Position numbers and translations under genes: made by a program. The notes under the pieces were generated by a model, which ran no database searches, was not told the DNA's origin, and saw only the letters and a program-made list of their open reading frames with translations. This document shows, one piece after another, positions 1 to 41,403 of a stretch of DNA of 64,000 bases. Source of the DNA: Candidatus Daviesbacteria bacterium (lineage in GTDB: Bacteria > Patescibacteriota > Microgenomatia > Daviesbacterales > UBA10151); contig JACPKL010000008.1 in the NCBI GenBank assembly GCA_016187035.1, forward strand, positions 35,990 to 99,989, in the 5' to 3' direction. Position 1 is the first letter of the stretch. Each line of letters opens with the position of its first letter.

Positions 1-2
1 CT

Positions 3-299
3 GGACAAAAGGGTAATTTATATCTTTTTTCCCATTCCACAGATGCTCCCTGGAATATTGTCAGGTTTAATGCTATATTTTATTTACTAAGGGAACTGGT
101 ACCAGGGGATAGGGTAATTATTTTTTATCAAAATAAACGTTATGATTATATAGTTTTTGATAAAACAATAGCTTTTCCTCAAGATGTGTCTTACTTGACT
201 AATAAGTACGATACTCCTGTTTTAACTTTACAAACCTGTGACCCGCCAGGAACCCTTTTAAACAGGCTGGTTGTGAGAGCAAGGCTGGTAAATTCTTAA
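3..299 (+). CDS. Sortase-family transpeptidase, C-terminal part (5' end outside window)
   Basis: Frame open from window edge to TAA 297-299. Translation GNLYLFSHS...YDTPVLTLQTCDPPGTLLNRLVVRA shows sortase His, TLxTC Cys and downstream Arg. Absent from ORF track because it has no start. Confidence 0.75.
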   Translation, partial: GQKGNLYLFSHSTDAPWNIVRFNAIFYLLRELVPGDRVIIFYQNKRYDYIVFDKTIAFPQDVSYLTNKYDTPVLTLQTCDPPGTLLNRLVVRARLVNS

Positions 300-300
300 G

Positions 301-1389
301 ATGAGCAAACGTTTTATCATCACTATCATAACAATACTAACCATCATGATTTCTGCTGGGATAGTGATTATGCTAGCTAAAGGTTATACTTTTTCCCCTA
401 AAGAAATGAAAGTTGTGGGAACCGGCATTATGACCATTTCCTCAGAGCCGGATGCTGCCTCAGTTTTCCTGGATGGACATTTAACAACTGCCACCAATGC
501 CACTGTATCTTCTTTGGCTCCTAAAAGTTATTCAGTTAAAGTGGTTAAAGAGGGTTTTATCCCCTGGGAAAAGTTGGTAGAAGTGAAAGAAGGTTTGGTC
601 ACAGATTTAAAAGTTACCCTTTTTCCAGCCATCCCCACTATTTATCCTTTAACTTTTAATGGTATTGTTAATCCATTGTTATCTCAGGATGGATCAAAAT
701 TAGCCTTTATTGTGCCTAAAGGTAAAAAGGCAGGTGTTTGGGTCTGGACCCAGACCCGCAATCAGCCAATTGCTTTTGCCCGTACTGCAGAGCCACACCA
801 GATTGCCAACAGCACTGTGGCAGATTTTTCCAGCGCCAATCTGCGCTGGTCACCTGACTCTAAACAAGTCCTGGCTACAGTTGACCAAAACAATTATCTG
901 CTTAATGCTGATTCACTAAACACAAATCCCAGGGATATTACTCCCATACTTGCTGCTACTTTAAATGAATGGGAAGAAGATATCAAGCAAACCCAGCAGT
1001 CAAGGATACTGACCATTGGGGATGCAAAGTTTAGAAAAATAGCTTCAGATTCTGCCCTGCTGCGTTGGGCTCCTGATGAGACTAAATTTATGGCCAGTGA
1101 CCAAAATACCAAAATGAAGATATATGATTTAGAGGAAAGAAAAGAATATTCTTTGCCTGAAGCTAAAGCTTATCTGTGGCTGCCTGATTCAAGGCATGTT
1201 ATTTTAGTTGAGGAAGGGGATATTGCTTTAGTTGATTTTGATGGCACTAATAAAGCTATAATTTATGCTGGTAAGTTTGAGGACTCTTTTGTTTTTCCCT
1301 GGCCGGATTCATCCCGTTTAGCTATTATCAGCTCATTCCCCACCCCTACAGCCTCAGAGCCAAACCTGTATGGGATAAACTTAAGGTAG
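301..1389 (+). CDS. Membrane-anchored PEGA-domain / beta-propeller-like protein
   Basis: N-terminal TM helix. PEGA-like segment ASVFLDGHLTTATNATVSSLAPKSYSVKVVKEGFIPW. Repeated LRWSPDSK / LRWAPDETK / LWLPDSRH blade-like motifs. ATG lies 1 nt after the sortase stop. Confidence 0.6.
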   Translation: MSKRFIITIITILTIMISAGIVIMLAKGYTFSPKEMKVVGTGIMTISSEPDAASVFLDGHLTTATNATVSSLAPKSYSVKVVKEGFIPWEKLVEVKEGLVTDLKVTLFPAIPTIYPLTFNGIVNPLLSQDGSKLAFIVPKGKKAGVWVWTQTRNQPIAFARTAEPHQIANSTVADFSSANLRWSPDSKQVLATVDQNNYLLNADSLNTNPRDITPILAATLNEWEEDIKQTQQSRILTIGDAKFRKIASDSALLRWAPDETKFMASDQNTKMKIYDLEERKEYSLPEAKAYLWLPDSRHVILVEEGDIALVDFDGTNKAIIYAGKFEDSFVFPWPDSSRLAIISSFPTPTASEPNLYGINLR

Positions 1390-1446
1390 TTTGACCCATT
1401 TAGTATATCTTGTGAGTGGGTTTTCCCCTTGATAAAATAACACCAG

Positions 1447-1497
1447 TGTCATCCCTGCGAAAGCAGGGATCCATACAAAATCAAGTACGGAATGACA
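1447..1497. repeat. TGTCAT...ATGACA palindromic (MITE-like) element, 51 nt
   Basis: Termini are tgtcatcc / ggaatgaca. Inner perfect stem is ccctgc-GAAA-gcaggg. Intergenic, upstream of mreB. Confidence 0.8.
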
Positions 1498-1507
1498 GAG
1501 GAAGTTT

Positions 1508-2524
1508 ATGTTTAATTTCTCCAAAAGAGTTGGGATTGACCTTGGTACTGCTAATTCCTTAGTTTACCTGGCTGGACAGGGTATTGTGTTAAACGAGCCA
1601 ACAGTGGTAGCTATCACCACAGATGATAACAGGGTTTTGGCTGTTGGGAATGAGGCTAAAGAAATGCTTGGCAGGACTCCCGGGAATATTATGGCCTCCC
1701 GTCCTATGAAAGACGGGGTAATTGCTGATTATGTGATTACTGAAGCTATGATCAGATATTTTTTGGATAAAGCTTGTGGACAAAGCAGGTTGTTTAAACC
1801 TGAGGTGATGGTTTGCGCCCCGGCAGGAGTAACTTCAGTAGAAAAAAGGGCTATTTTAGATGCCACGCTGTCAGCCGGAGCCAAGACTGCTTTTTTAATA
1901 GATGAGCCTTTAGCTGCAGCCATTGGGGCTAAAATTCCTATAGCCAACCCTTCAGGTAACATGATTGTGGATATTGGCGGAGGAACCACAGAGGCAGCAG
2001 TGATTTGTTTAGGAGGAGTAGTGGTTCATTCATCAGTTCGGGTAGGGGGTAATAAGCTGGATGAGGCCATCCAGAATTTTGTCAGAAAAAAGCATAATTT
2101 AGTCATAGGGGATAATATGGCTGAGGAGGTTAAAATTAAGATTGGTTCTGCTACCAAGCTTAAGCCTAGTGAGGTTAGTAAAATGGCAGTCAGGGGAAGG
2201 GATGCTTTTACTGGTTTACCCAGGACAGTGGAGGTCAGCTCTGAGGAAGTTACAGAAGCTCTTTCAGAGATAGCCCAAAAAATTGTTTCAGCAGTTAAAG
2301 GGGTTTTGGAAAATATTCCTCCTGAGCTGGCCTCAGATATTATTGATAAGGGAATAGTGATGAGCGGGGGAACCTCACTGTTAAGAAACTTGGATAAACT
2401 GTTAACAGATTCTTTAGGAGTGCCTGCTTCTTTAGCAGAAAACCCGCTTTTATGTGTAGCCTTGGGAACAGGACTAGCCCTAGAAAACCTGGATCTGTAC
2501 AAAAGATCAGTTTCTAGAAGATAA
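1508..2524 (+). CDS. mreB: Rod shape-determining protein MreB (copy 1)
   Basis: Actin-fold motifs GIDLGTANSLV, DEPLAAAIGA, DIGGGTTE. 338 aa, full length. Confidence 0.9.
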   Translation: MFNFSKRVGIDLGTANSLVYLAGQGIVLNEPTVVAITTDDNRVLAVGNEAKEMLGRTPGNIMASRPMKDGVIADYVITEAMIRYFLDKACGQSRLFKPEVMVCAPAGVTSVEKRAILDATLSAGAKTAFLIDEPLAAAIGAKIPIANPSGNMIVDIGGGTTEAAVICLGGVVVHSSVRVGGNKLDEAIQNFVRKKHNLVIGDNMAEEVKIKIGSATKLKPSEVSKMAVRGRDAFTGLPRTVEVSSEEVTEALSEIAQKIVSAVKGVLENIPPELASDIIDKGIVMSGGTSLLRNLDKLLTDSLGVPASLAENPLLCVALGTGLALENLDLYKRSVSRR

Positions 2525-2531
2525 TAGTTAT

Positions 2532-3782
2532 ATGACTATTGGTTTTGACGGGTCAAGGGCTTTTGGACAAAATAAGCAAAGCTCTTCCTGGAATGAGCAA
2601 AGCTCTTCCTGGAATGAGCAAAGCTCTTCCTGGAATGAGCAAAGCTCTTCCTGGAATAAAACAGGAACAGAAAATTATTCTTATCAGCTGTTAAAAGCAT
2701 TGGCAAAAATTGACAATAAGAATAGCTATATTGTTTATTTAAGACCTGATGTGGTTATTCCTGGTTTTTCTTCTGTCGTTCCGAACGTAGTTATGTTCGC
2801 TCGCAATGACCAGGAGGATTGGCCGGAAAATTTCCAATTTAGGGTTATTCCCTGGCCCAGGTTTTGGACCCAGGGAGGCCTAGCTTTGCAGACTTTTAAA
2901 GACAAGTTGGATGTGCTATTTATTCCTTCCCATACCTTGCCTTTAATCAGGAAAAGAGGGCTTAAGACTATGATTACAGTACATGATTTAGGATCAGAGT
3001 ATCTGCCATCAATGCACCAAATTAAGCAGCGGTTATATTTGTCTTTTATGCAAAAATACCAGCTTAAAACTGCTAGCAAGATAATTGCAGTATCAAAGGC
3101 TACCAAACTAGATCTAATTAACAAAATAGGTATCAAGTCAGATAAAATAACAGTTGTTTATGAAGGATATGATGAAAAAAGATTTAAGATTCAAGATTTA
3201 AGATTTAAGAATGATATAAAAGTTAATAGTTTGAGATACTTTTTGTTTGTAGGGACAGTACAACCAAGGAAGAATTTGGAAAGGGTAATAAGAGCTTTCT
3301 CAACTCACCTCGAAGGTGAAAAAATGCAGTTACACCTTCGAGGTGGATTGAAGCTGCTGATTGCTGGTTCCAAGGGTTGGTTATCTGATGAAATATATAA
3401 ACTCCCTAAAAAACTGGGAATAGAGGATAAAGTCAAGTTTTTAGGCTATGTGCCTGACGAAAAGCTGGCTTATCTTTATAAAGGAGCTATAGCTTTGGTT
3501 TTTCCCTCTCTTTTTGAAGGATTTGGTTTGCCTATTCTGGAAGCCCAAGCTTGTAGTTGCCCGGTGATTACCTCAAACCTCTCATCCATGCCTGAAGTGG
3601 CAGGTAAAGGAGCAATTTTAGTGAATCCGTATTCTGTAGATGATATAGTAAGGGGGATGGTACAAGTTCAAAGTTCAAAGTTCAAAGTTCAAAGTTTGAT
3701 AAAAGCAGGGCTTCAGAATGTTAAAAGATTTAGCTGGGAAAAGGCAGCGAGGGAAACATTGAAAGTGCTATCGTCATCCTGA
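2532..3782 (+). CDS. Glycosyltransferase family 4 (GT-B, GT1-type C-terminal domain)
   Basis: FPSLFEGFGLPILEAQACSCPVITSNLSSMPEVAG (E-x7-E region). N-terminus MTIGFDGSRAF is typical of GT4. Carries several in-frame repeat insertions. Confidence 0.85.
   Translation: MTIGFDGSRAFGQNKQSSSWNEQSSSWNEQSSSWNEQSSSWNKTGTENYSYQLLKALAKIDNKNSYIVYLRPDVVIPGFSSVVPNVVMFARNDQEDWPENFQFRVIPWPRFWTQGGLALQTFKDKLDVLFIPSHTLPLIRKRGLKTMITVHDLGSEYLPSMHQIKQRLYLSFMQKYQLKTASKIIAVSKATKLDLINKIGIKSDKITVVYEGYDEKRFKIQDLRFKNDIKVNSLRYFLFVGTVQPRKNLERVIRAFSTHLEGEKMQLHLRGGLKLLIAGSKGWLSDEIYKLPKKLGIEDKVKFLGYVPDEKLAYLYKGAIALVFPSLFEGFGLPILEAQACSCPVITSNLSSMPEVAGKGAILVNPYSVDDIVRGMVQVQSSKFKVQSLIKAGLQNVKRFSWEKAARETLKVLSSS
2576..2659 (+). 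repeat. Tandem repeat, 21 bp x 4 (gcaaagctcttcctggaatga)
   Basis: Three identical units and a fourth with one mismatch. Encodes (QSSSWNE)x4 near the GT4 N-terminus. Confidence 0.95.
3179..3213 (+). repeat. Heptanucleotide-period array (aagattt family), in frame in GT4
   Basis: aagattt aagattc aagattt aagattt aagaatg. Translated KRFKIQDLRFKND. Confidence 0.85.
3306..3345 (+). repeat. Perfect hairpin element (13-bp stem, 14-nt loop), in frame in GT4
   Basis: cacctcgaaggtg (3306-3318) and caccttcgaggtg (3333-3345) are exact reverse complements. Translated HLEGEKMQLHLRG. A second copy lies at 59238-59307. Confidence 0.9.
3663..3696 (+). repeat. Heptanucleotide-period array (caaagtt), in frame in GT4
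   Basis: caagtt followed by caaagtt x4. Translated VQVQSSKFKVQS. Confidence 0.9.
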
Positions 3783-3796
3783 TACGAATTTCGCAG

Positions 3797-3877
3797 TGTC
3801 ATTGCGAGGAAGGAGTCTTCGACTGACGAAGCAATCTTCCGAGCTGGGAAGATTCCTCGGATGCACTCGGAATGACA
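3797..3877. repeat. TGTCAT...ATGACA palindromic (MITE-like) element, 81 nt
   Basis: tgtcattgcgagg...ctcggaatgaca. Inner stem aatcttcc-gagctg-ggaagatt. Fills the GT4/GT26 intergenic spacer. Confidence 0.8.
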
Positions 3878-3887
3878 GAAAGGGATT

Positions 3888-4661
3888 ATGAAGAAGGATG
3901 TTCTTGGAATCAAAATTGATGATGTTAATATTAACCAAGCTGTGGAAGTAGTATTTGGGTGGTTGAAAGAGGGAGGTAGGCGCTACATTGTTACTCCTAA
4001 TCCTGAGATAGTGGTGATGGCTCAAAAAGACCAAGAACTTAAAAATATTTTGAATAATGCAGATCTGGTAATTCCTGATGGGGTTGGTTTAAAAATAGCA
4101 ACTGATATAGTTTGTAATACTCCAGGAATAGACTTAATGGAAGCATTAATAAAATTAAGCAATGGAAAAGGCTTTACAACAGCCTTTTTAGGAGGCAAAG
4201 AAGGAGTAGCAGAAAAAGCAGCTGAGTGCTTACTGCGGAAGTATCCAAACCTTAAAATCTCATTCACTGGTTCTGGTGGTGAAATAAATGAGAATGGAGA
4301 GTTAATAGGAGAAGATTTAAGATTTAAGATTTATGATTTAAGAGATAAAAACGTTCATAAATCGTTAATCGTTAATCGTAAATCTCTGCCGAAGGCAGAT
4401 CTGCTCTTTATAGGTTTTGGTCCTCCAAAACAGGAAAAATGGATTGCTAAGAATTTAAATAAACTGCCTGTGAAGATAGCTATGGTTGTAGGGGGATCAT
4501 TAGATTATTTGTCTGGCCAAGTGCCAAGAGCTCCTAAATTTATCAGAAGCTTAGGATTGGAATGGCTATTTAGGCTAATAATTCAGCCCTGGAGGATCAG
4601 AAGACAGCTTGCGTTGCTCAAATATCTTTGGTTAATTTGGACAATGGATGGTGGAAAATAG
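3888..4661 (+). CDS. WecB/TagA/CpsF-family glycosyltransferase (GT26)
   Basis: VTPNPEIVVMAQKD, IPDGVGL, FIGFGPPKQEKWI, GGSLDYLSGQVPRAPKFIRSLGLEWLFRLIIQPWRIRR. Confidence 0.85.
   Translation: MKKDVLGIKIDDVNINQAVEVVFGWLKEGGRRYIVTPNPEIVVMAQKDQELKNILNNADLVIPDGVGLKIATDIVCNTPGIDLMEALIKLSNGKGFTTAFLGGKEGVAEKAAECLLRKYPNLKISFTGSGGEINENGELIGEDLRFKIYDLRDKNVHKSLIVNRKSLPKADLLFIGFGPPKQEKWIAKNLNKLPVKIAMVVGGSLDYLSGQVPRAPKFIRSLGLEWLFRLIIQPWRIRRQLALLKYLWLIWTMDGGK
4311..4385 (+). repeat. 75-nt heptamer-based imperfect hairpin, in frame in GT26 gene
   Basis: Left arm is aagattt-type units (4312-4346). Right arm is aaatcgt/taatcgt units (4356-4385), roughly the reverse complement. This is exactly 25 codons (EDLRFKIYDLRDKNVHKSLIVNRKS). 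Confidence 0.8.
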
Positions 4662-4787
4662 AAGATAGTGGTGGAAGGTAGATAATAGATGATAGATAAT
4701 TTCTATCTTCTAAGAGCGAAGCTCGCAAGCTTTGCTTATATTCTATTTTCAAAAATACCATCTTCCATATTCTATCATCTATCGTCT
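4651..4787. repeat. Composite purine-rich / pyrimidine-rich repeat block with central gagcgaagc core
   Basis: gaaaatagaa / ttctattttc and gatgatagata / tctatcatctatc occur as reverse complements. Centre is taagagcgaagctcgcaagctttgcttatattct. Intergenic, overlapping the GT26 stop. Confidence 0.75.
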
Positions 4788-4798
4788 AATATAATAAT

Positions 4799-5302
4799 AT
4801 GATAATCACAAAAAGCGCTAAAGATTTAAAACCAGTGTTAATGAAAGGAGCAAAATCAGGAGTTAAAAACCCCTATTATTTGATTGAAGATCAGGATCAA
4901 GTCATATTTGTAGTTGCTCCTGGGAGAAATGGCATAGAGTTTAATAAAACTTTAGGTTATTTTAGCTTTTTTCCTAATATGCAAACCTATCAGTGTTTAT
5001 ATGGACAAGGGGTAATTGTCATGCAGAGAAATGATGATTTTGGAGCAAAAGAGTTTAAAGTGGTAACTATAAATTCTAATAAACAAATTTTAGTGCCAGC
5101 AGGCTGGGGAATGTGCTTAATTAATACTGGAACTAACTTGTTAGTAGTAATAAGGAGCAGCAGGTTTGATGATAAGTATCTGGATACTAAACCAATTTTA
5201 GAAAAAAAGGGTTTTGCCTATTATATTGTGGAGAAAAAGGGTGAGATCAGTTTTGAGGAAAACCCTAATTATTCCATGCACCCACAGATTACTACAGAGT
5301 GA
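4799..5302 (+). CDS. Cupin-fold protein (cupin-type glucose-6-phosphate-isomerase-like; function uncertain)
   Basis: 167 aa. The beta-rich pattern GIEFNKTLGYF...YGQGVIVMQ...VPAGWGMCLINTG resembles cupin PGI-like proteins, but the metal-binding His residues are not obvious. Confidence 0.35.
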   Translation: MIITKSAKDLKPVLMKGAKSGVKNPYYLIEDQDQVIFVVAPGRNGIEFNKTLGYFSFFPNMQTYQCLYGQGVIVMQRNDDFGAKEFKVVTINSNKQILVPAGWGMCLINTGTNLLVVIRSSRFDDKYLDTKPILEKKGFAYYIVEKKGEISFEENPNYSMHPQITTE

Positions 5303-5334
5303 TAGTTTTTAGCTTTAGGACAACATATCCAAGT

Positions 5335-5550
5335 TTAATTAGCAGAAGATACCTTCTGAGTGATACCCAATAACCAGAGTACTGCTTCCTTTTTGTAGCG
5401 GCGGTCTCCTCTGGAATTTATTCTGATAGCTGGGAGTTTTCCTCTTTTACCCCATCTTTTAATAGTTAAAGGAGAAACTCTGAGAACTTGTGCAACTTCT
5501 CTAACAGTTAATAAATCAGGGAGATGTTCAAGGGAGATTTTATCAGCCAT
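5335..5550 (-). CDS. Excisionase/MerR-type helix-turn-helix DNA-binding protein
   Basis: LLTVREVAQVLRVSPLTIKRWGKRGKLPAIRINSRGDRRYKKEAV matches the excisionase-family HTH pattern. Confidence 0.7.
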   Translation of the reverse strand: MADKISLEHLPDLLTVREVAQVLRVSPLTIKRWGKRGKLPAIRINSRGDRRYKKEAVLWLLGITQKVSSAN

Positions 5551-5613
5551 TCTGTCTCAGAATATATCACATGGTTTCAGAGCATGTCAATACCCAGCCG
5601 TGTTGTTCCAGGG

Positions 5614-6054
5614 TTATTGTAATTCTACAGTAGCACCTGCTGCTGTTAATTTGGTTTTTGCTTCTTCAGCTGTTTGTTTGTTAACATTTTCTAAAACCGG
5701 TTTTGGAGCTGCTTCTACCAAATCTTTAGCTTCTTTAAGTCCTAAAGTAGGTACTAATTCCCTGACAGCTTTAATTACGGCTATTTTATTAGCTCCTGCT
5801 TGAGAAAGGACCACATTAAAGGTTGTTTTCTCCTCTTGCGGCTCACCTGCTGCTTGCCCTGAGTTTGTCGAAGGGGCTACTGCCACAGGCGCTTGAGCTG
5901 ATACACCAAACTTATCTTCCAGAGTATGGACTAAATCTGCCAGTTCTAGAACTGATAATTTCTCAATAGTAGCAATTATTCCTTCTAAGTTTTTACTAAC
6001 TGGTTTCTTTTCAGAAGACTTAGATTTCTGATCTTGTGTATTATCCATGTTCAT
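5614..6054 (-). CDS. rplL: 50S ribosomal protein L7/L12 with about 20-aa K/S-rich N-terminal extension
   Basis: [26 protein letters not shown]...[31 protein letters not shown]...ATVELQ. Confidence 0.9.
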
Positions 6055-6055
6055 T

Positions 6056-6147
6056 TGTCATTCTGAACGAAGTGAAGAATCTCTAGACTTGTTCTAAATA
6101 CATCTGAAATGAATTCAGAGATCCTTCGCTAATCGCTCAGGATGACG
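6056..6147. repeat. TGTCAT...ATGACG palindromic (MITE-like) element, 92 nt
   Basis: Left arm tgtcattctgaacgaagtgaagaatctct. Right arm agagatccttcgctaatcgctcaggatgacg. Fills the rplJ-rplL spacer and overlaps the last codons and stop of rplJ. Confidence 0.85.
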
Positions 6148-6679
6148 CTTGCGTGTCACCCCCCTTCATCTTTTGAATTTCTGAAAGTGCATATACTAAA
6201 TTTCTTAAGTTAGCTTGCAACACTCCCACAATTCCTTGCAAAGGAGCAACTAATACTCCTACTGTTTTAGCTCTTAGCTCCGGTTTTGAAGGAAGGGTGG
6301 AAAGTTGGATAATCTTTGCTTCATCCAGGCTGTCTTTACCTAAAAATCCTGATTTTACTTTACCTAAGCTGGCATCTTTTAATATTTTAACTAATATTTT
6401 AATAGGGGAGATCTCATCATCATAAGCAAAAAGTGCGGCAGTAGGACCTTCTAGATTGGAAGTTGGAAGTTGGAGGCTAGAAGCTGGAAGGGCACGCTCT
6501 AAAAGAGTATTCTTAGTAATACTAAATTCTGCAGATTGTTCCCTGAGTTTATTTCTTAGATCAGAGAGTTGCTTCATGGTCAGACCTTTGTAGTCTGTAA
6601 AAACCACTGCTTTAGCTTTAGCTAATTTTTCCTGTAATTTAATAACCAAATCTTGCTTTTGTTGTCTTGTTTTAGCCAT
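6137..6679 (-). CDS. rplJ: 50S ribosomal protein L10
   Basis: MAKTRQQKQDLVIKLQEKLAKAKAVVFTDYKGLTMKQLSDLRNKLRE. I place the start at ATG 6679. The 33 upstream codons of the track ORF look like non-coding leader. Confidence 0.85.
   Translation of the reverse strand: MAKTRQQKQDLVIKLQEKLAKAKAVVFTDYKGLTMKQLSDLRNKLREQSAEFSITKNTLLERALPASSLQLPTSNLEGPTAALFAYDDEISPIKILVKILKDASLGKVKSGFLGKDSLDEAKIIQLSTLPSKPELRAKTVGVLVAPLQGIVGVLQANLRNLVYALSEIQKMKGGDTQASS
6456..6490. repeat. Heptanucleotide-period array (ttggaag family), in frame in rplJ
   Basis: ttggaag ttggaag ttggagg ctagaag ctggaag on + strand. Read on the minus strand as PASSLQLPTSN. Confidence 0.8.
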
Positions 6680-13002: not shown

Positions 13003-13899
13003 ATCCAGCTTTATTGATGGGCCCATGGTGGGTGAAAGGGAGACTTTTTTAATCCTGGATTTGCCTATGGTTTGGAGAAGAGTTTTAATATTAGCTGATA
13101 ACTCCTCAGTGGGTTGATTAAGTTTACCTAAACCAAGATGGATAACAGGAGCTTTGGCTTCTGTTTTATATTCTGAGCGAAGCGAAGAATTCAAGCTCTG
13201 CTTATATTCTGTTTTACCAGCCTGGAAAGACTCTACTGCCTTTTTTAAATCAGTCACAATAGTACCGCTCTTAGGATTTGGCATGAGGCCCTTAGGTCCT
13301 AAAATCCGGGCAACTTTAGCCAGTTTAGGCATACCAGCAGGTGTTGTCACAATTAAATCAAAATCTATTTTGCCTTTACTGATATTTTCAATAGTCTCAT
13401 CGTCACCCTCATAAGCTAAGATCCTTAATTTCTTGCCTGAGGCATAGGGGAGGGAAACCAGTCCCCGTAGCCCGGTTTGGATAGTTAAAATATGGGCTTC
13501 CAAAGTGCCTGTAAAGGCTGAGAAAGAATGTTTTTTTACCAGATCTACAGCCTCATTCAGAGGGTAGGTTTTACTTCTATCTAAGTCTTTAGTAGCTTGC
13601 TGGTATTTTTTAGATCTGGGCTTGGATTTAGCAGGTCTCCTGTTATCAGGTTTCTGTTTTCGGTTTTCGGATGTAAGTTTATCAGTTCTCTGTTTGTCTG
13701 TTTCTGAAACTGATAAACTGGTAACAGATTTACCTTTATCTGACAACTGAGAACTGAGAACCGATGACTGATCTTCTCCTTCCAGCTCTGCTTTGAGTTT
13801 TTCCACCAGCTCATCTGTCCTGCCTAGTTTTTTGGCAGGTTTTTTTGGTTCTTTTTGTTGGATGGAATCATCCATTATTTTTGTTTTAGTTTTACCCAT
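12988..13899 (-). CDS. rplA: 50S ribosomal protein L1 with about 95-aa N-terminal extension and an internal 12-aa insertion
   Basis: Core motifs [33 protein letters not shown]...[11 protein letters not shown] overlaps the rplK stop (ATGGGTAA), as in coupled rplKA. Confidence 0.9.
13166..13211. repeat. 36-nt element insertion bounded by 10-bp direct repeat TTATATTCTG, in frame in rplA
   Basis: TTATATTCTG at 13166-13175 and 13202-13211. Between them lies agcgaagcgaagaattcaagctctgc. Duplicates the EYK codons of L1. Confidence 0.85.
13746..13773. repeat. Heptanucleotide-period array (actgaga), in frame in rplA N-terminal extension
   Basis: actgaga actgaga accgatg actgatc. The neighbouring sequence 13649-13670 has ttttcgg units. 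Confidence 0.8.
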
Positions 13900-14317: not shown

Positions 14318-14351
14318 AATCTGATTTTGATATTTTACCTGACTCCAAACG

Positions 14352-14420
14352 AGATTTAAGATTTAGGAATTAAGATTCAAGATTTTTATTCTTAAATCAT
14401 AAATCTTATCTCTTAAATCT
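14352..14420. repeat. aagattt-family imperfect hairpin in the nusG-rplK spacer
   Basis: agatttaaga (14352-14361) is the exact reverse complement of tcttaaatct (14411-14420). The interior is made of aagattt-like units and their complements. Confidence 0.8.
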
Positions 14421-15108
14421 AGATTTTTTGTACCTGCAGAAAATCCAGTTCAACAGGTGTTTCCCTGCCAAATATAGAAACCAGAACCTTGATCTTTCCT
14501 CTTTCTTCATCCACATGATCTACTTTACCAATAAAGTCTGCAAACGGGCCGTCAACAATTTTAACAGTATCAGAAACAGTAAAAACCTGTTTAAAAGTGG
14601 GAGCTTCCTCTTTGGTGAATTTAACAATAGTAGCTACTTCAGCATCAGAAATTGGGGTAGGTTTATTTCCCATACCCACAAAAGAAGTGACTCCGGGGGT
14701 GGTCCGTACAGCCAGCCAGGATGCTTCATCCAAAATCATTTTTACCAGAATATATCCGGGAAAAATCTTTTCTTTAACTTCTATCTTTTTACCGCTCCTG
14801 ATTTCAATTTTATCCTGCATTGGCACCAGGACTTCCAGGATTTTTTCTTCCAGATGTTCTGATTCAATTCTCTGCTTTAAAGTAGCAGCCACCTTATTTT
14901 CATGGCCTGAATAGGTATGGACTACATACCATTTAGCATTGGGGTTAGAGGATTTGACGGTAGATGGTGGAAGATTGATGGTAGAATCTTGAGGATTGAT
15001 GATAGAAGGTGGATCTTCTTCTTTCGATTTTCCATCTTCTATTTTCAAAGTACTATCTTCTACTTTTCTATCATCTATTGTCTGTTCTTCTGTTTTATTA
15101 TTGTCCAT
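14419..15108 (-). CDS. nusG: Transcription termination/antitermination factor NusG with about 55-aa N-terminal extension
   Basis: WYVVHTYSGHENKV (NGN domain). KOW region VKIVDGPFADFIGKVDHVDEERGKIKVLVSIFGRETPVEL. Confidence 0.9.
   Translation of the reverse strand: MDNNKTEEQTIDDRKVEDSTLKIEDGKSKEEDPPSIINPQDSTINLPPSTVKSSNPNAKWYVVHTYSGHENKVAATLKQRIESEHLEEKILEVLVPMQDKIEIRSGKKIEVKEKIFPGYILVKMILDEASWLAVRTTPGVTSFVGMGNKPTPISDAEVATIVKFTKEEAPTFKQVFTVSDTVKIVDGPFADFIGKVDHVDEERGKIKVLVSIFGRETPVELDFLQVQKI
14959..15083. repeat. gatagaag-family imperfect hairpin, in frame in the nusG 5' extension
   Basis: The left arm ggtagatggtggaagattgatgg...gatgatagaaggtgga is collinear with the reverse complement of the right arm tccatcttctattttcaaag...tctatcatctattgtct. 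The right arm closely matches spacer 4741-4787. Confidence 0.75.
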
Positions 15109-15289
15109 TGTTTCCTACTAAATAAGCTGTTAGAGATGTCAGGATATAATCCAACCCTCCTAAAAAAAGCCCTACAGCCACTGCTACAGCTACTACTAAA
15201 ATAGTGTAGCGGATGGTTTGCCCTCTTGAGGGCCAGGTCACTTTTAACAGCTCCTCTTTAACCTCTTTTAAAAAACTGATTGCATTCAT
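15098..15289 (-). CDS. secE: Preprotein translocase subunit SecE
   Basis: 63 aa. FLKEVKEELLKVTWPSRGQTIRYTILV plus one TM helix. Position is upstream of nusG. Confidence 0.85.
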   Translation of the reverse strand: MNAISFLKEVKEELLKVTWPSRGQTIRYTILVVAVAVAVGLFLGGLDYILTSLTAYLVGNNGQ

Positions 15290-15373: not shown

Positions 15374-15397
15374 AAAAAAGGGTCCTATCTTGGACCC
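15374..15397 (-). terminator. Intrinsic-terminator-like hairpin (GGGTCC-AAGATA-GGACCC-TTTTTT on minus strand)
   Basis: Perfect 6-bp GC-rich stem followed by T6. Lies upstream of secE with no minus-strand gene ahead of it. Confidence 0.4.
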
Positions 15398-15471
15398 ACT
15401 TTGTCAAGTATAACAGAAACACCTTGATTTTAGCAAGTAGAGAAACTACACTGAATTTAGATAGATTAAAT

Positions 15472-22201: not shown

Positions 22202-25200
22202 ATACCAATCGCTTCAACACTAGGAGCAGGAGTTTGCTCTTCACCTAATGTATAAATTACACTAATACTGTCAGCGCTGCCATCCTCAAAAGTTCTAATC
22301 AAAGAGCAGGTCATGGAAGTTTGGTCCTCAGGAATAGACAACCATATATCTTCCCCTGAGTTCATAATATCACCGGTTGTTTCACCTGGGCACTCCAGCA
22401 CTGCTGAAGAAGTAACTTCTGGTTCATCAGGAGCAGGTGCCGGGGCAGGCAGATTAAAGTTAATAGGATGTGGTTGAATGTTTGTTTCTAAATTATCTGC
22501 GGTGAAAGTTACTGTATATGATCCCGGGTCTAAAGGTTTATATTCTGCATAATAGGTGCAGCCACCTTTGCATAGACTTTGATCAATGTTAGCAGAAATA
22601 GTTTCTTCTCCGTGTGGGCTGGTGACCAAAAACTTAGGGTTTTGGAGGGATTGGCCGTCAGTATATATAAATTTAATAGGTTGGTTAACTGGCACATCAC
22701 CATTATTATCAGGGAAAGGTTCGATACTGACAGTTATCAAGAGGGAATCTAGACTTAATTCTAGTGATTCTCTGGGTAAAGTTACTCTGTCCCAGCCGGT
22801 TGTTGACCTGAATTTATCTGATATTTCAAAAGCCCCTGTCTGGACATCATAATAAAGTATTTCTCCGGAATTGGAAGTTATTACTTCAACAGGGTTGCCG
22901 TTAACTGATTTATCAACCGGGATTTGTGAAGAAGTATTGTTTTGATTTCTGGCATTAATAACCACATCAACCAGCTCTACTGTCTTATCATCTGAAGGGT
23001 TGTTTACCGGAGTGACAAACGGAACTATATGGAAAGAATAATTTTGGTTATTTTTAACTTTTCGGCCGTTTTTCCAGGAAACAGCAGTACATTTAAATGC
23101 AGGCCTTGGGTTAGTTCCCTCAGAATAAAACTCTTCCTGAATCAAATATTCACCATTGGGATCTAAATCATCCAGCCTGGAAGAAAGATTAGTATTAGCT
23201 TCAGCAGTAAACCTTAAAGAATCATTAACATAAATATTAACCCTGTTATATTCAGCAGGCAGCGTTCCTTTAACATCAGGGTAAGAAACAGTAGTGGTAT
23301 CAGTTTGCCCAACCTTTGTTGCACACCAAAGCACAGATCCTATTACCGGTGTTTGGACAAACTGGATATCTGAAAGCAAGGTTAATTTAGCTTTTGCCAG
23401 TGTTTGGTATTGATCAGTGTCCTGGTGGCTTACCCAGAGTTCATATTCTCCTGGGATCAACTTTAAATTCTTAAAATCTAACACATAAGAGTGACAATTG
23501 GCAAAATCAGCATAAGGTAGAGCTATTAATTTAGGGGAGGATTCTTGGATCTGATATAGCTCAAGCTTAATTGATGCATTCTGGCAAGCTTCATCTTCAT
23601 TTTCAGTAAACATTTTCCCGCCGATATTGACAGTTCCGGCAGAAATAGGTACTTCCATTTCCTGTAAACCATTAATATAAGCTTTAACCTGGGCAGTTTT
23701 TTTGATAGAGGCTGGAATTGGAGTTGGGGCAGGTTGTTCAGTTGCAGGAGCTGTTGGTTCAGCACCAACTGGTGCTTGGGCAAATTTGCCTAAGTTATAT
23801 CTTTTTTGAATACATTCTGCAAAAGTGATTGATCTATTAGTTGTTTCTTTTAAAACCAGGGGAGCACAGGTGTTTTCTGCCAGATTATCACAATCTTTTT
23901 CTTTTACCCCTGTTTTACCAGCTTCCCCGCACCAGGCTCCAATAATACTGTCTATACTTACCTGATCTGTCCAGACATTTCTTAGCTGGTCAATAGGAGC
24001 AACTATGGCAGGAGCTGTAAATAATCTTTCTGCTGCTGTTTTGACACAGGATTCCAAATCCTGGAATGCATCTACTTTCAGGTTCTGACAGCCTCTTTGG
24101 ACAACAGTTTGCTCACATCTTCTGCCATTATTGTCATCTAGTCCCTCATCTGGATGATGGGCTTTCCAGACAAACTCGCAATATTGTCCAACATATTCAT
24201 CAAACTTAACTTCACCTTCATCTAATTGCTGCTTTATATTTCTTGGTATATTCTGGTCTTCTTCTGAACAAACCAAAAATTTATCTTTGGTATCTTTCAT
24301 ACAAGTATCAACGTCATCCCCATACCCAGTACAAGTTTGTGTACCTAGATAAGTTCTACAACTTTTGCCTCCACAAGTGTTTGTTACATTAGTACAGTAA
24401 TAATCAGTTTTTTGCTTAATTTGGCAATCTCTATCACAAGGAGCTGCTGCAGCCGGAGCAGCTGCAGGGGGCGGCGGTGGGGTTGCTGGGGCTGGTGGAG
24501 CAGCCGGTGGTGGAGTAGCTGGTGCTGCTACTGGAGCTACCGGGGCAGCATTAGACAGCAATGAATACTGGTAGTCTGACATACACTTGTTTTTGTCTGC
24601 ATCAGATTTGCACATCTCAAAAGTCTGCCAGCAGATTTCGTCTGTAGGACTACAAAAATCTGAAGCTGTTAGGGTAACAGGTCCTGCTGCAGGTGGGGGA
24701 GCTGGAGGTGCTGGTGGAGCAGCAGGGGGTGGAGCTGCAGGTGGTGGGGGAGGGGCTGCTCCTGAACCTCCAGTTGCTGCGGCTGATGAAGCTGCTTCTT
24801 CTCTGGCTTTATTTATTGCTTCCTGACGTGATGATAATACACACTCATTAAAAGCATCCAGGTATATATCCTCATCATAGCAATTATTAGCTTGGTTATA
24901 TCCTAAACACACTTGAGGATTATAATCAGGGACACTCTGAGGTTTATTATTGCAAGTTTCCTCAATCCTGATTTTTGCTTGTTCTTTTTTGCGTTGTGTA
25001 TTTATACCTGCAAAATGATCTGTGACACATTCTTTAGGGACAATAGCAGGATCTTCTAATATTTTACTGGTACATTCAGCTATTACTGATGATTTACAAG
25101 CAGAATCTTTCTGACACTTATTATCGCTTACGCTGATTAATTGATCAAATTTATCTGGATATCCAATATAAAGCCCATGAAGCCTGAGAGTATCTTCGCT

Positions 25201-37212: not shown

Positions 37213-37272
37213 TTTTCAATCATTGAATCATTGAACACTCATTGTAAATTGTAAATTGTAAATTGTAAATTG
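37213..37272. repeat. Dispersed repeat copy 2 plus gtaaatt heptamer array (x4)
   Basis: aatcattgaatcattgaacactcattg followed by gtaaatt x4 (37244-37271). Lies in the divergent spacer between the M50 gene and rpmB. Confidence 0.85.
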
Positions 37273-37291
37273 GTATGTTAAACTTAGCCTC

Positions 37292-37504: not shown

Positions 37505-38405
37505 GAGGAAAATCAGGGTAGCCGTTTAAGAAGTCTTTGAAGGATATTGGTTTTTTCCCCTCCATTTGCAATAAATGTTCATCCTTCCTGTCATTCTGAG
37601 CGATTAGCGAAGAATCTTCCATGGATCGGGAAGATTCCTCACTCTGTTTTGGATAACGTATGGGTGGCAAAAATTTAATAATTTTGTTATTCCATTTTGT
37701 CCATACCCCTGGCCAGGGATAATAAGCGCGGATCTCTCTGTCTAATTTTTCAGGTTGGGGAGGATTATTAATATTAAAATAACCATCTTCTTTAACAAAG
37801 TGTTTAGTGTAAGTAGCCTTGGAATGATCTTGGGGGGTAGGATTAATTGATCCTTCCAAGTATTGTTTTATTACCTTTAAAATTAGTTGTCCTCCTAGTT
37901 CATTTAGCTTAGTCAATAAAGTATCTCTAGTTTCTTTGGGAGTCAGTATATATTCCTGTTGGGCTAGTATATCTCCGCTATCTACCTCATCAGTTATTTG
38001 AATGATAGTAACTCCTGAAATCTTGTCTCCATTAAGAATAGCAGTAGGAGCAGGGGAAGGACCTCTATATTTGGGTAAAAGTGAATGATGGATATTTAAT
38101 GGAGCATATTTTGGTAAGGTTAGCAAGTCTTTAGACAGGATTAATCCATAATCTTCCACTACCAAAAAATCACTCTTCAGCTTGGCAATTTTATTTATTA
38201 CTTCCTTGTCTAATTTACTTGTTTCCAAAGTTGGAATATTTAATTCACTGGCTAATTTTTTAACAGGACTATCAGGAATTGTGATAACTAACGATACAGG
38301 AAAGATTGAATAGACAATCTTTAATCCAATAATTGAGTACTTTGTATTCCCAAAAAAAACTAGTTTAAGTTTTGAGTTTTGATTTGAAGTTTTAACATTT
38401 GACAT
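37473..38405 (-). CDS. fmt: Methionyl-tRNA formyltransferase
   Basis: VFFGNT..., NIHHSLLPKYRGPSPAPTAIL, C-terminal LQMEGKKPISFKDFLNGY. Position is downstream of def. Confidence 0.85.
   Translation of the reverse strand: MSNVKTSNQNSKLKLVFFGNTKYSIIGLKIVYSIFPVSLVITIPDSPVKKLASELNIPTLETSKLDKEVINKIAKLKSDFLVVEDYGLILSKDLLTLPKYAPLNIHHSLLPKYRGPSPAPTAILNGDKISGVTIIQITDEVDSGDILAQQEYILTPKETRDTLLTKLNELGGQLILKVIKQYLEGSINPTPQDHSKATYTKHFVKEDGYFNINNPPQPEKLDREIRAYYPWPGVWTKWNNKIIKFLPPIRYPKQSEESSRSMEDSSLIAQNDRKDEHLLQMEGKKPISFKDFLNGYPDFPLKQLLRTRLF
37589..37646. repeat. TGTCAT-type palindromic element, in frame in the fmt C-terminal domain
   Basis: tgtcattctgagcgattagcgaagaatcttcc-atggatc-gggaagattcctcactctg. The arm nearly matches the reverse complement of the right arm of the 6056-6147 element. 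Translated (minus) as about QSEESSRSMEDSSLIAQNDRK. Confidence 0.8.
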
Positions 38406-38422
38406 TTGAGTTTTGAGTTAAA
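38367..38422. repeat. Heptanucleotide-period array, 8 units, spanning fmt codons 1-13, the fmt/def spacer and the def stop
   Basis: aagtttt gagtttt gatttga agtttta acatttg acatttg agttttg agttaaa. The sense strand of fmt reads MSNVKTSNQNSKLK. Confidence 0.85.
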
Positions 38423-39097: not shown

Positions 39098-39367
39098 CTA
39101 GGGTCTTCTATTATTTTGAAGTTGATGTAACCGCCACATAAATATTTTGGCTTTGGATTTGGCAGAAGTGTATCCTTTGGTAAAACTCAAAGTTTCCTCC
39201 AAGAGCCTTCTATCCAGCTGTTTGGCCAGTTTAATATATAGGGAATAACGCTTAGTATCTCCTAAGCTTTCTGCTAAGTATATCCCATATTCCTGAAATT
39301 CATGTGCTATATTCTTGGGTCTATCTTTAAACTTAGCATCAGCTATAGCTGTTTTGATGGACTTCAT
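39098..39367 (-). CDS. Hypothetical 89-aa protein
   Basis: ATGA-type 4-nt overlap with the upstream gene. No motif recognised. Confidence 0.45.
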   Translation of the reverse strand: MKSIKTAIADAKFKDRPKNIAHEFQEYGIYLAESLGDTKRYSLYIKLAKQLDRRLLEETLSFTKGYTSAKSKAKIFMWRLHQLQNNRRP

Positions 39368-41403
39368 GGACTTCCTGATTTTGTTGCCTCTTTTAATTGT
39401 TCTAATGCTTCCAGATAATCTGGTTTTAAGTTTAAGGTAGTTTTTAGATTTTCAATTTCTTCATCCTTTTTACCGATACTTTCTAAAATTAAAGCCTTAT
39501 TATAATAAAGCTTAGGATCAGTTGGGGCCAGCTTGATAGCCATATCTAAAGCTTCCAAAGTTTTGTTAACATACTTTTTATCTAAACTAGCTAATTCATA
39601 ATATGTCCTAATAGCTGTTCTCCAAAAAGAAACGTTTTTAGGGCTAATTGTTAAACTGATTTTTAATTGATTTAAAGCCTCATCTTCTAAAGCAGCAGAA
39701 AGAGAAGCGTCAGTTTCTTTTAAAGCAGCAGCAGCCGCAGCTGCAGAATAGCTAAGTTCAGAACGGTAGAACGGCTCTCCTTTATTTAAGTCAGAAGCCA
39801 TGCTTAATAAATTATATGCTTTGCCAGGATTACCTAAATCTGAGGCTTTTTGACCTTGATTGAACAGTGTATCAGCATACCAAAGCTGGAAGATAGAATA
39901 TAGAAGATAGAGGGTGGAAAAAATCACAATCCCTTTAGCTATATTAGTATAAATTTTCCGACGGTAGATGATAGAAAATAGATGATGGAATTTTGAAGCT
40001 GGAAGATGGAAGGTAGAAATAGAATCAGTAGCAACAAAAACCAAAGCAGGAAAAAGGTAAAAAAAGACAGCTATGATAACTACTGAGAATAGGAAGAAGT
40101 TATAGATAAGATAGGAGATATATGAGGCAAGAATACTATAAAGTAGCAGATTTTTGGTTCCTTTGCGTTTTAGTATAAGCGAAGCTTGATACTTCGTATT
40201 AACAATTATAAATTTTATAAAAATTATAATAATTATCAAATAAGTTCCAAATCCTACAATGCCTGTGGTAGCTAGATAATTCAAATACTCATTATGGGCT
40301 TTATTGTATAAAAAATCCCACTCAGAGGTTAAGTTATGCTCCTTTGGCCTGAATTGATAATATGAATAAGCAAATGTCTCCACTCCTGAGCCAAACAAGG
40401 GATAATGTTTAAAAATATCCAGGGCTCCATGCCAGACAATAAACCTGATTTGTCCTGATTCTGTGCCGCCATTTTCCAGTTGTGTACCTACAGAAGGATT
40501 GGAAGGTAAGCTGATGGTAGGTCTTGCTGGAGCAGCAAATTTAGAGACTAACCTGAAAGAGGTTAAAGCAGACCCAAAAAGAACATTAATAACCAGAAAA
40601 CTTAATATTACTATAAGTAATGATTTCAACTTAACTATATTTACGATTCCACCCTTAGGGTGGAGCCTTAGAATATAGAGACCGATAAGAGTGATAAATC
40701 CAACTATTAGGCCTAATGTTGGACCTCTTGAGTAGGTAAAGGTAAAAGCCAGGTAATAAATAACAAGTAGTAAGTAGTAAGTAGTAAGTAGTAAGGGGGA
40801 AGGAGCAGATAAGAAGAAATACAGGGCAGGGAAGATCAACATGGCAAGGTAGGCTGCCATCCAGTTTGGCTGGCCTAAGGTGGCAAAAACTCTTTCATAA
40901 ACTTTTTGCACCCAGCAGTCAGCATTAAATTCTCCTCTTAAAATTACACAGGAAGGTGATACCTGAAAGTGTTCTAAAATTCCCCAGACAGCAATAATCA
41001 GACCTGAAGCTAAGCCTATTTTTAAAAGGGGCTTAATTTTATCTGCTGTAACATTAGATACAAAGGCCCAGTAAAGCAAAAGATAACAGATTATGGATAA
41101 GAGGCCTCCATTGGAGCGTGAATAATAACCCCAGATAGAAGTATGAAGGTCTATTGAGAAAATAGTTGATAAAATATTAGCCCCTAAAAACAGCAGTAAT
41201 GGAATGTCCAAGGGTGTACGATTTAAGATTAAAGATTTATGATTTATGATTTTAAGAAGCCAACTCCCTACTATAACTACAGTCAATCCATAAGTTAAAA
41301 TCATCTTGTTATATTCAAAAAGCTCATAATTTAAAGAGGTCCAAAAAAGAGGAGTTAGAAAAAAGAGAGTATAAAAAGAATAGGAAATAATTTTATCAAG
41401 CAT
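39364..41403 (-). CDS. O-antigen-ligase-like polytopic membrane protein with C-terminal TPR repeats
   Basis: YSRGPTLGLIVGFITL (Wzy_C-like) and NEYLNYLATTGIVG. The C-terminal 150 aa are TPR-like (AYNLLSMASDLNKGEPFY..., YYNKALILESIGKKDEEI). Confidence 0.65.
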   Translation of the reverse strand: MLDKIISYSFYTLFFLTPLFWTSLNYELFEYNKMILTYGLTVVIVGSWLLKIINHKSLILNRTPLDIPLLLFLGANILSTIFSIDLHTSIWGYYSRSNGGLLSIICYLLLYWAFVSNVTADKIKPLLKIGLASGLIIAVWGILEHFQVSPSCVILRGEFNADCWVQKVYERVFATLGQPNWMAAYLAMLIFPALYFFLSAPSPLLLTTYYLLLVIYYLAFTFTYSRGPTLGLIVGFITLIGLYILRLHPKGGIVNIVKLKSLLIVILSFLVINVLFGSALTSFRLVSKFAAPARPTISLPSNPSVGTQLENGGTESGQIRFIVWHGALDIFKHYPLFGSGVETFAYSYYQFRPKEHNLTSEWDFLYNKAHNEYLNYLATTGIVGFGTYLIIIIIFIKFIIVNTKYQASLILKRKGTKNLLLYSILASYISYLIYNFFLFSVVIIAVFFYLFPALVFVATDSISTFHLPASKFHHLFSIIYRRKIYTNIAKGIVIFSTLYLLYSIFQLWYADTLFNQGQKASDLGNPGKAYNLLSMASDLNKGEPFYRSELSYSAAAAAAALKETDASLSAALEDEALNQLKISLTISPKNVSFWRTAIRTYYELASLDKKYVNKTLEALDMAIKLAPTDPKLYYNKALILESIGKKDEEIENLKTTLNLKPDYLEALEQLKEATKSGSP
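39884..40025. repeat. gatagaag/ggaagat-family repeat blocks, in frame in a TM region
   Basis: agctggaagatagaatatagaagatagagggtgg (39884-39917) and ggtagatgatagaaaatagatgatgg...ggaagatggaaggtagaaatagaat (39963-40025). The antisense strand is read as FSTLYLLYSIFQLW / DSISTFHLPASKFHHLFSIIY. Confidence 0.75.
40767..40794. repeat. Heptanucleotide array gtagtaa x4, in frame in a TM region
   Basis: Four exact gtagtaa units, read on the minus strand as LLLTTYYLL. Confidence 0.9.
41221..41255. repeat. aagattt-family heptamer array, in frame
   Basis: atttaag attaaag atttatg atttatg attttaa, read on the minus strand as LKIINHKSLILN. Confidence 0.85.

Follow-up and report, generated by a model that had tools for sequence, protein, structure and literature searches.

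We describe here a palindromic repeat that lies in frame within nusG, the gene of an essential transcription factor, in a 64,000-nucleotide stretch of the genome of a Candidatus Daviesbacteria bacterium (GenBank assembly GCA_016187035.1, contig JACPKL010000008.1, positions 35,990 to 99,989; hereafter the window, numbered from its first letter). Our conclusion, to which we give a probability of roughly 85%, is that some 42 residues of the N-terminal tail of this NusG are encoded by a translated, decayed copy of a dispersed palindromic repeat that was inserted into a tolerant tail. A preliminary description of the window had noticed that a block of 47 nt in nusG recurs in a non-coding spacer, and had proposed that the NusG extension was built from repeat DNA. 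That proposal is supported by the existence of a dispersed family, by the direction of derivation, by a start codon upstream of the repeat and by the nusG alleles of relatives. While the origin from repeat DNA stands, the description missed the 127-nt palindrome to which the block belongs, the in-frame copies in other genes (including rplA) and the fact that the repeat is the stem of elements of the rRNA intervening sequence (IVS) type.

The two sequences that had been quoted, 15037-15083 in nusG and 4741-4787 in the spacer, are both present in the window. By local alignment about 42 of 50 columns are identical, each sequence carrying one gap, where some 40 of 47 with a single indel had been estimated by eye. 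At +1/-1 scoring the 47-mer 15037-15083 reaches 32 against 4731-4800, its top non-self match in the window, while dinucleotide-preserving shuffles of the query (n = 60) gave best scores of 17.3 ± 1.2 and never exceeded 20. Thus the similarity of the two blocks is not compositional, a doubt that the preliminary description had itself raised. The block is real repeat DNA, but it is only one arm of the repeat, the full units being 127 nt (14956-15082) and 147 nt (4640-4786) long.

The unit in nusG, which we call copy B, lies on the minus strand and encodes NusG residues 10-51 (TIDDRKVEDSTLKIEDGKSKEEDPPSIINPQDSTINLPPSTV). In the sense direction its 5' arm (15082-15024), most of which is the block flagged earlier, is followed by a loop at approximately 15023-15016 and a 3' arm at 15015-14956. 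The partner arm reported in the preliminary description is real, with 14956-15015 pairing to 15024-15082 in an imperfect hairpin; the folding energy is -29.5 kcal/mol (z -3.8) for the mRNA, or minus, strand and -50.4 kcal/mol for the plus strand.

Copy A, a member of the same family, lies in the spacer between wecG and a GPI-cupin gene (4640-4786), with its left arm at 4640-4700 and its right arm at 4735-4786, arms being about 58 nt long in the family. As RNA it folds at -61.8 kcal/mol (z -8). The left arm supplies the final seven wecG codons and their TAG stop, its first 22 nt encoding the C-terminal TMDGGK and this stop. The right arm, which holds 4741-4787, is non-coding as had been claimed, with the wecG stop (TAG, 4659-4661) on one side and the next ATG, at 4799, on the other. 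That ATG has no recognisable Shine-Dalgarno motif upstream (taatataataatATG, in the stretch 4787-4801); genes downstream of intergenic copies in other loci (L084-L192) often begin just 4-13 nt past the end of the element. Nested in the loop of copy A is a small GC-rich hairpin (GAGCGAAGCTC…, 4714-4737, plus strand) with a terminator-like score, because of which copy A is longer than the other copies; apart from this hairpin, promoter and terminator scans found nothing specific to the elements. An nhmmer profile of the arm detects five arms in the window at E-values of 1e-10 to 1e-14, two in each copy and a solo arm at 39960-40017 (plus strand), inside a Wzy_C/TPR membrane-protein gene on the minus strand (39364-41403). 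A weak sixth match of the profile falls at 39887-39916 in the same gene, where a weaker second arm spans 39884-39913, so that the window holds two full copies plus one or two solo arms. An Rfam scan of the whole window returned three tRNAs only, and neither copy matched a known RNA family.

These copies belong to a large family. When metagenomes were scanned with a degenerate 27-nt pattern of the arm, at least 120 loci (0.77 Mb) were obtained, and the family counts that follow come from the loci listed. At least 232 arms pair into at least 64 hairpins of 113-137 bp, a range that becomes 113-147 bp when the window is included, with up to four hairpins per 12 kb in some stretches (L096, L100). 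The termini are sharp (GACG…CGTC; GACGRTAGATGRTAGAA…TTCTAYCATCTAYCGTC) and common to more than 50 copies, the terminal CGTC pairing with GACG, and the loop sequence (AAATCGAAA…) is likewise common to family copies. The arms consist of approximately four to seven tandem heptamers (GAWGATA; consensus GACGaTA GATGATA GAAgATa GAAGaTA), and in 108 arms identity at a lag of seven reaches 0.61, other lags giving about 0.25. Four other Daviesbacteria genomes have such arms: one has a single arm in the orthologous wecG/cupin spacer (L001), a second has an intergenic hairpin (L018), a third has a hairpin at the site orthologous to that of L018 (L002), and in the fourth the N-terminal tail of rplA contains a complete in-frame hairpin (L010; peptide QTIEDRKSKVVVEDRESKIEEKEKVHPQPSTIKKPSSTIHHPSS). 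A second rplA tail carrying the element was found in L149. The idea that the similarity is a matter of composition, in that low-complexity purine/pyrimidine DNA acquired a heptamer periodicity independently at each site, draws on the low complexity and heptamer periodicity of the arms and on several unrelated heptamer tracts in the window, but is effectively refuted by the shuffles, the sharp ends, the common loop and the nhmmer E-values.

We next consider whether the copy in nusG is translated. The nusG coding sequence (14419-15108, minus strand) specifies 229 residues, in which Pfam places the NGN domain at 59-161 and the KOW domain at 179-208, leaving residues 1-58 as a tail. The protein is 100% identical to one listed at NCBI under Candidatus Daviesbacteria. 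The peptide given in the preliminary description is correct, and the element accounts for residues 10-51, that is, 42 of the 59 residues preceding W60 of the NGN domain. It sits between a conserved start (MDNNKTEEQ) and the NGN-domain motif (NPNAKWYVVHT). An AGGA motif stands slightly upstream of the start codon at 15108, which falls within the last codons of secE (15098-15289, minus strand), whose final codons and TAA overlap the nusG ATG by 11 nt, as they do in relatives. Across about 120 NusG homologues the MDDNK/MEDNK N-terminus and the NPNAKWYVVHT motif are conserved, the former being kept whatever the length of the tail, and the segment between them, which ranges from 4 to 150 residues, is open in all. 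The NusG start therefore probably lies upstream of the repeat, with the tail translated as part of the protein; TIDDRKVEDSTLK and IEDGKSKEEDPPSIINPQDSTINLPPSTVK are peptides expected if this is so.

The alternative is that the repeat is not translated, either because initiation occurs downstream or because the hairpin is removed or bypassed, making the tail an annotation artefact. The hairpin does lie close to the 5' end of the gene, and some gene callers start inside the element: the database entries P0014 and P0015 begin at a methionine within the repeat (MEDGESK… and MENREID…), unlike P0006 and P0008, so that gene callers disagree on the NusG start because of the element. In the window, however, leaving aside some ATA and ATC, just one in-frame codon ahead of W60 resembles a start: the TTG at codon 21, which belongs to the 5' arm. 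Between codon 21 and W60 there is no ATG, GTG or TTG, which extends the earlier remark that no methionine separates the repeat from WYVVHT and leaves the TTG as the sole alternative start. Further, the MDDNK start overlaps the secE stop in all relatives, copies of the element within genes are free of stops, and in other genes the Pfam domains on both sides of an insertion keep one frame (both described below). We regard an untranslated repeat as very improbable.

The tail is hypervariable among relatives and predicted to be disordered. In an AlphaFold2 model built on a 62-sequence alignment, residues 1-58 have a predicted local distance difference test score (pLDDT) of 36-48 and no secondary structure, and the NGN and KOW domains, modelled with fair confidence, have 10-residue block means mostly of 65-87, with dips to 55-61. 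On the strength of this hypervariability and predicted disorder, the tail would be a permissive site for insertion.

The relationship between coding and non-coding members of the family gives the direction of derivation. Among the at least 54 unique hairpins listed, about 41 are intergenic and 13 lie inside long open reading frames (ORFs). Many of the intergenic copies leave just 3-14 nt of spacer at either side, or run over the stop of the upstream gene. Their canonical frame is open in only 3 of 82 readings, and just 4 of 41 are open in any frame, while all 13 unique coding copies, together with all nusG and rplA copies, are stop-free. We therefore conclude that there is selection for an open frame. 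The peptides of coding copies are alike, of the type (K/Q/T)T(I/V)DDRK…PSST…, most of them sharing one reading frame and others using a shifted one. Pfam domains run across the insertion in TopA (between Toprim and the core), GDH, MnmA, WecG and a RadA-like protein, and also in a Pyr_redox_2 enzyme, ATP-grasp and MBL-fold proteins and a GT1 glycosyltransferase; one gdh gene holds three copies. Orthologous insertions recur in independent assemblies, in topA (L189, L183) and in gdh (L096, L100, L159), and in-frame copies are thus unlikely to be assembly artefacts.

At the positions where intergenic copies have the stops TAG or TGA, each coding copy has been changed differently, to TGG, TTG or TCG or by a frameshift. 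In the nusG copies the shared, nusG-specific features include a 1-nt insertion (AAAAGTAGAAG, where the family has AAAATAGAAG). In the usual frame intergenic copies read K*KIVF*K*K, and the extra G in nusG produces the open KVEDSTLKIED, so that three stop codons of the family disappear; further along the element the frame is regained. Given that intergenic copies carry stops that the nusG copy avoids by this insertion, derivation appears to have run from non-coding element to coding sequence. A fixed model in which element length plus duplication equals 3n was dropped, as the lengths of coding copies (118-137) follow no rule. We also considered split genes or ribosomal bypass as an account of 42 copies that have no spanning ORF, and set the idea aside: judged by ORF positions, the neighbours of these copies are separate genes, 3-14 nt away. 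A profile of the element peptide, run against 5.8 billion proteins, gave one match at E ≤ 1e-3, a 45-residue profile being too short for significance in a database of that size.

Besides these short forms there is a long form. In at least eight loci the arms flank, within 4-18 nt, an ORF of about 120 residues that matches PF05635, "23S rRNA-intervening sequence protein" (E 1e-21 to 5e-27), and TIGR02436, "four helix bundle protein". This ORF is absent from the nusG copy and from every short form. Long forms are found inside 23S rRNA (L105, L091; the 23S gene of L091 also holds hairpins without the ORF), in the 16S-23S spacer (L183, L131) and in the 23S-5S spacer of L083, where two near-identical arm/PF05635/arm modules stand in tandem (3996-4501 and 4927-5432). 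In the last of these loci (1-6020) the 23S rRNA gene also carries a group I intron (2410-2928), and the tandem modules are followed by the 5S rRNA. Homologues of PF05635 number 14 in the arm-selected loci (0.77 Mb) against one in 80 nusG-selected loci (approximately 1.1 Mb). Other PF05635 genes are flanked by different heptamer families: CAGTTCT (L091), GAAGTGA (L162, L193) and GTATATA (L207). Because the same arms flank PF05635 genes in rRNA operons, and because the IVS of Coxiella is built alike, the nusG repeat is, judged by its sequence, the stem of an IVS-type element family. It lies in a protein gene and so is not itself an rRNA IVS, but members of its family sit in rRNA operons.

[quoted passage not shown] If true, this would give the S23p family its first proposed role, and RNase III-sensitive stems would shape both operon processing and the evolution of coding copies.

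It may be asked whether the relationship should be read in reverse, with the coding version as the source, as in the palindromic amphipathic repeat coding elements (PARCELs), or in a modular way, with PF05635 genes homing into the loops of hairpins that already existed. For the first of these speaks the observation that either orientation of the palindrome gives similar peptides, and for the second that PF05635 lineages occur in different heptamer families, which homing into loops explains as well as co-evolution does. Most copies, however, are intergenic with conserved TAG/TGA stops, which coding copies have changed each in its own way, and in the at least eight loci with the long form the PF05635 ORF fills the loop exactly. 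Both versions seem to us improbable, and we retain the derivation of the nusG tail from a non-coding palindrome.

The history of the nusG copy itself can be followed in relatives. An orthologous copy is present in seven genomes (the window, L001, L203, L204, L205, L206 and L207). Elsewhere the element has suffered central deletions (P0019, P0065) or has lost its 5' arm and reads QTINPPSSTV (L003/P0038 and P0025), and in L201/P0115 a footprint-like site, CAGAC|TCACAAT, keeps the outermost bases of both arms. In L202 there is no trace of the element in nusG, with a core that is 94% identical. Comparison of these alleles thus shows the copy to be common to at least seven relatives and lost elsewhere through central deletion, loss of an arm and near-precise excision; by the same comparison, it is an old and partly decayed member of the dispersed family.

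How selection has acted on the copy bears on a further alternative, namely that the element is functional in nusG, whether as an acquired acidic disordered peptide or as a hairpin signal, in mRNA or DNA, that acts on the translational coupling of secE and nusG, on RNase III processing of the mRNA or on transcription. At least seven species keep the copy at 81% mean column identity, despite synonymous divergence (dS) in the NusG core being saturated at 1.2-2.8, and the variability of synonymous sites is roughly halved in the element relative to the core. The nusG peptide is also more acidic than the family peptide, and intergenic copies stand 3-14 nt from their flanking genes, as processing sites would. 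On the other hand, the ratio of non-synonymous to synonymous change (ω) is 0.3-1.4 in the element, compared to approximately 0.05 in the core, relatives with 94% core identity do without the element, others show progressive deletions, and the tails of other lineages are unrelated in content. Moreover, there is no covariation support for a structure in the sense strand, which carries the weaker hairpin. Constraint on the element is thus weak at the level of protein, yet its nucleotides are more conserved than expected under neutrality; either a constraint on the nucleic acid or a more recent ancestry of the tail by recombination is a possible cause. Of a function in nusG we are doubtful, and we continue to favour a decaying insertion in a tolerant tail.

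Several points weigh against that reading. Fourfold-degenerate sites differ by 0.33 in the nusG element against 0.61 in the core, and twofold sites by 0.18 against 0.29 (Fisher p values of 0.03, 0.007 and 0.046 for three independent pairs), a synonymous conservation that neutral decay alone leaves unexplained. RNAalifold on the seven nusG copies gave a consensus of -16.6 kcal/mol with a covariation term of +1 and no compensatory support, and we claim no conserved mRNA structure, since the consensus is weak and lacks covariation. A neighbour-joining tree of the NusG core scatters element-bearing among element-free alleles, and it cannot separate one gain with many losses from lateral exchange because the core is too conserved. 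The metagenome loci, at least 120 in number, were chosen by the arm pattern, irrespective of taxonomy. We infer mobility solely from where the copies occur; neither a transposase nor a target-site duplication nor a within-population empty site came to light, although the window was not searched systematically for transposases, and 54 copies examined for target-site duplications had none visible. The case for translation, likewise, comes from conservation of the reading frame.

Folding of the coding copies carries a signature of its own. In 6 of 7 nusG copies the hairpin is less stable in the sense than in the antisense direction; the same holds for 10 of 12 other coding copies, while intergenic copies split 11 to 10. 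Read on the mRNA strand, the mismatches in coding copies are A·C, and read on the opposite strand they are G·U. They correspond to U-to-C changes in the sense 3' arm, and these turn hydrophobic codons into codons for Pro, Ser and Thr. Such changes would weaken the mRNA hairpin, cutting any RNase III cleavage or ribosome stalling that it causes, and we infer that selection has disfavoured stable mRNA hairpins, hydrophobic residues, or both, in coding copies. Within elements, the polarity of G·U and A·C mismatches between strands is only weakly above random (2.67 versus 2.22 ± 0.23). In 51 hairpins (L081-L200), the arms of one element pair at 20.35 of 28 positions, compared to 21.74 ± 0.21 for arms taken from different elements, and 292 of 390 mismatches are A/G transitions. 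The low complementarity of an element's own arms may mean that perfect palindromes are selected against, or may reflect ascertainment by the pattern search.

The sequence of events that we propose is as follows. A non-coding palindrome would have been inserted into the permissive tail of nusG, where only frame-preserving variants could survive, and would have persisted because the tail tolerates the element. The mRNA hairpin and the hydrophobic codons would then have eroded, and the element would finally be lost, in some lineages, through palindrome-stimulated deletion.

The closest behavioural analogue known to us is the Rickettsia palindromic element (RPE; Ogata et al.; PMC10969869). Like the present family, RPEs are dispersed palindromes of approximately 100-150 bp, found between genes and in frame in unrelated conserved genes, where they add a peptide without destroying the host protein, and no associated transposase is known. 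The present family belongs to a different phylum (CPR/Microgenomates), making sequence homology unlikely; its arms are tandem heptamers, it has a PF05635 long form in rRNA operons, and its consensus is not an ORF, intergenic copies carrying stops (3 of 82 readings open), in contrast to the conserved ORF of RPEs.

The closest structural relative is the 23S rRNA IVS with an S23p/PF05635 ORF, known from Coxiella burnetii, Leptospira and Salmonella (PMC4990558). The IVS of Coxiella has terminal inverted repeats, an S23p ORF and tandem GACAGAT heptamers beside an RNase III site, and has been called a selfish element, its mobility being an old hypothesis (PMC4990558). Both it and our family have a long inverted-repeat stem with a four-helix-bundle ORF in the loop (in our family in the long form only), and both have tandem heptamers in the stem region, GACAGAT in Coxiella and GAWGATA here. 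Classical IVSs have been described in rRNA alone, from which RNase III excises them, whereas the present family also occupies spacers and protein genes.

Bacterial MITEs, such as the enterobacterial repetitive intergenic consensus (ERIC), Coxiella QMITE and the Neisseria Correia element (PMC10969869, PMC5896051), are short and non-autonomous with terminal inverted repeats, and resemble the family in having a longer, gene-carrying related form and occasional translational fusions. They differ in that our family has no target-site duplication, its long form encodes a PF05635 protein rather than a known transposase, and the whole element is a hairpin instead of inverted repeats around unrelated DNA. 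Repetitive extragenic palindromes (REPs) and bacterial interspersed mosaic elements (BIMEs), including CGTC-tagged REPs (PMC3733652), are palindromic, lie mostly between co-directional genes with some inside genes, and can share the CGTC end. They are, however, only 20-40 bp long with an unpaired tetranucleotide tag, those of the GTAG type being linked to REP-associated tyrosine transposases (RAYTs; PMC3733652), while our elements measure 113-147 bp and pair their CGTC. No RAYT was seen with the family, though RAYTs were not searched for systematically.

Actinobacterial NusG also has a lineage-specific disordered appendage of unknown function before the NGN domain (bioRxiv 10.1101/2022.10.21.513233), as here, but an origin of it in repeat DNA is not reported, and the Daviesbacteria tail is hypervariable between close relatives. 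The coding palindromes of Nematomorpha mitochondria (PMC6649704) and the PARCELs (PMC2996958) are inverted repeats in coding sequence with both arms translated; they occur in organellar or surface-protein contexts, without intergenic or rRNA counterparts and without heptamers. In a literature search that did not cover all journals, we found no account of IVS-type or other palindromic elements translated in CPR genes, of NusG extensions in CPR, or of S23p as a mobile element.

It is important to note what the nusG copy would mean on our reading. It offers a tangible example, open to checking, in which a transcription factor that is essential and conserved universally acquired approximately 40 residues from non-coding repeat DNA, and it is not isolated, given that this family and at least two sister families lie in frame in ribosomal protein L1, topoisomerase I, GDH, MnmA, a RadA-like protein and WecG. 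Genomes of the CPR are small, and such clutter is unexpected there. The family links rRNA intervening sequences with S23p/PF05635 to palindromic "selfish DNA" in protein genes, and makes both the mobility of IVSs and the role of S23p testable by comparative genomics. In practical terms, insertions in tails and loops inflate the apparent novelty of proteins in CPR proteomes, mislead gene callers (as with the nusG starts placed inside the element) and disturb alignments for phylogeny.

Two further heptamer families form in-frame hairpins in the window. The first (CAGTTCT) lies in the N-terminal tail of rplA at 13640-13775 on the minus strand, is about 80% identical in DNA to the nusG-tail element of L007, and belongs to the family that flanks the PF05635 gene inside the 23S rRNA of L091. 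Tails of L1, the product of rplA, range from 2 to 110 residues among relatives, and in other lineages peptides such as VIASE…AKQS and IATSPSAPRND, found in tails of NusG and L1, hint that small repeats like the 28-nt pair described below are translated as well. The second (AGATTTA) forms a hairpin in wecG at 4305-4384 on the plus strand; the same loop of the protein carries a nusG-type element in L141 and nothing in L001. Another hairpin of the AGATTTA family (14347-14425) fills the spacer between nusG and rplK and overlaps the nusG stop, and AGATTTA tracts lie inside two other ORFs (3171-3218 and 41211-41256).

The Wzy_C/TPR gene that holds the solo arm has four heptamer tracts from at least three families (39883-39918, 39960-40017, 40750-40809 and 41211-41256). 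Five further tracts are found at 3652-3705, 6453-6492, 37232-37282, 38382-38421 and 55076-55135, with the units AAGTTCA, GGAAGTT, TGTAAAT, TTTGAGT and AACTCAA/AAGTGAA, and by a greedy gene map 9 of the 12 heptamer tracts of the window lie inside ORFs. Two segments, 38383-38419 and 55089-55125, show 81% mutual complementarity.

A promoter-like site, TTGCTA-18-TATACT plus a TG extension, lies upstream of secE (15380-15436, minus strand), and after it comes a GC-rich hairpin that has a T-run and looks like a terminator (15397-15380). A 21-nt unit (AATGAGCAAAGCTCTTCCTGG) is present four times in tandem at 2571-2675, near the 5' end of the ORF 2532-3782, and a GC-rich (about 0.6) repetitive tract of Gly/Ala type at 23720-24780 is an outlier in folding energy in a genome of about 35% GC. 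Finally, a 28-nt pair (GTCATTCTGAGCGATTAGCGAAGAATCT) at 6119-6146 and 37590-37617, which is 93% complementary across 31 kb, looks like a small dispersed repeat.

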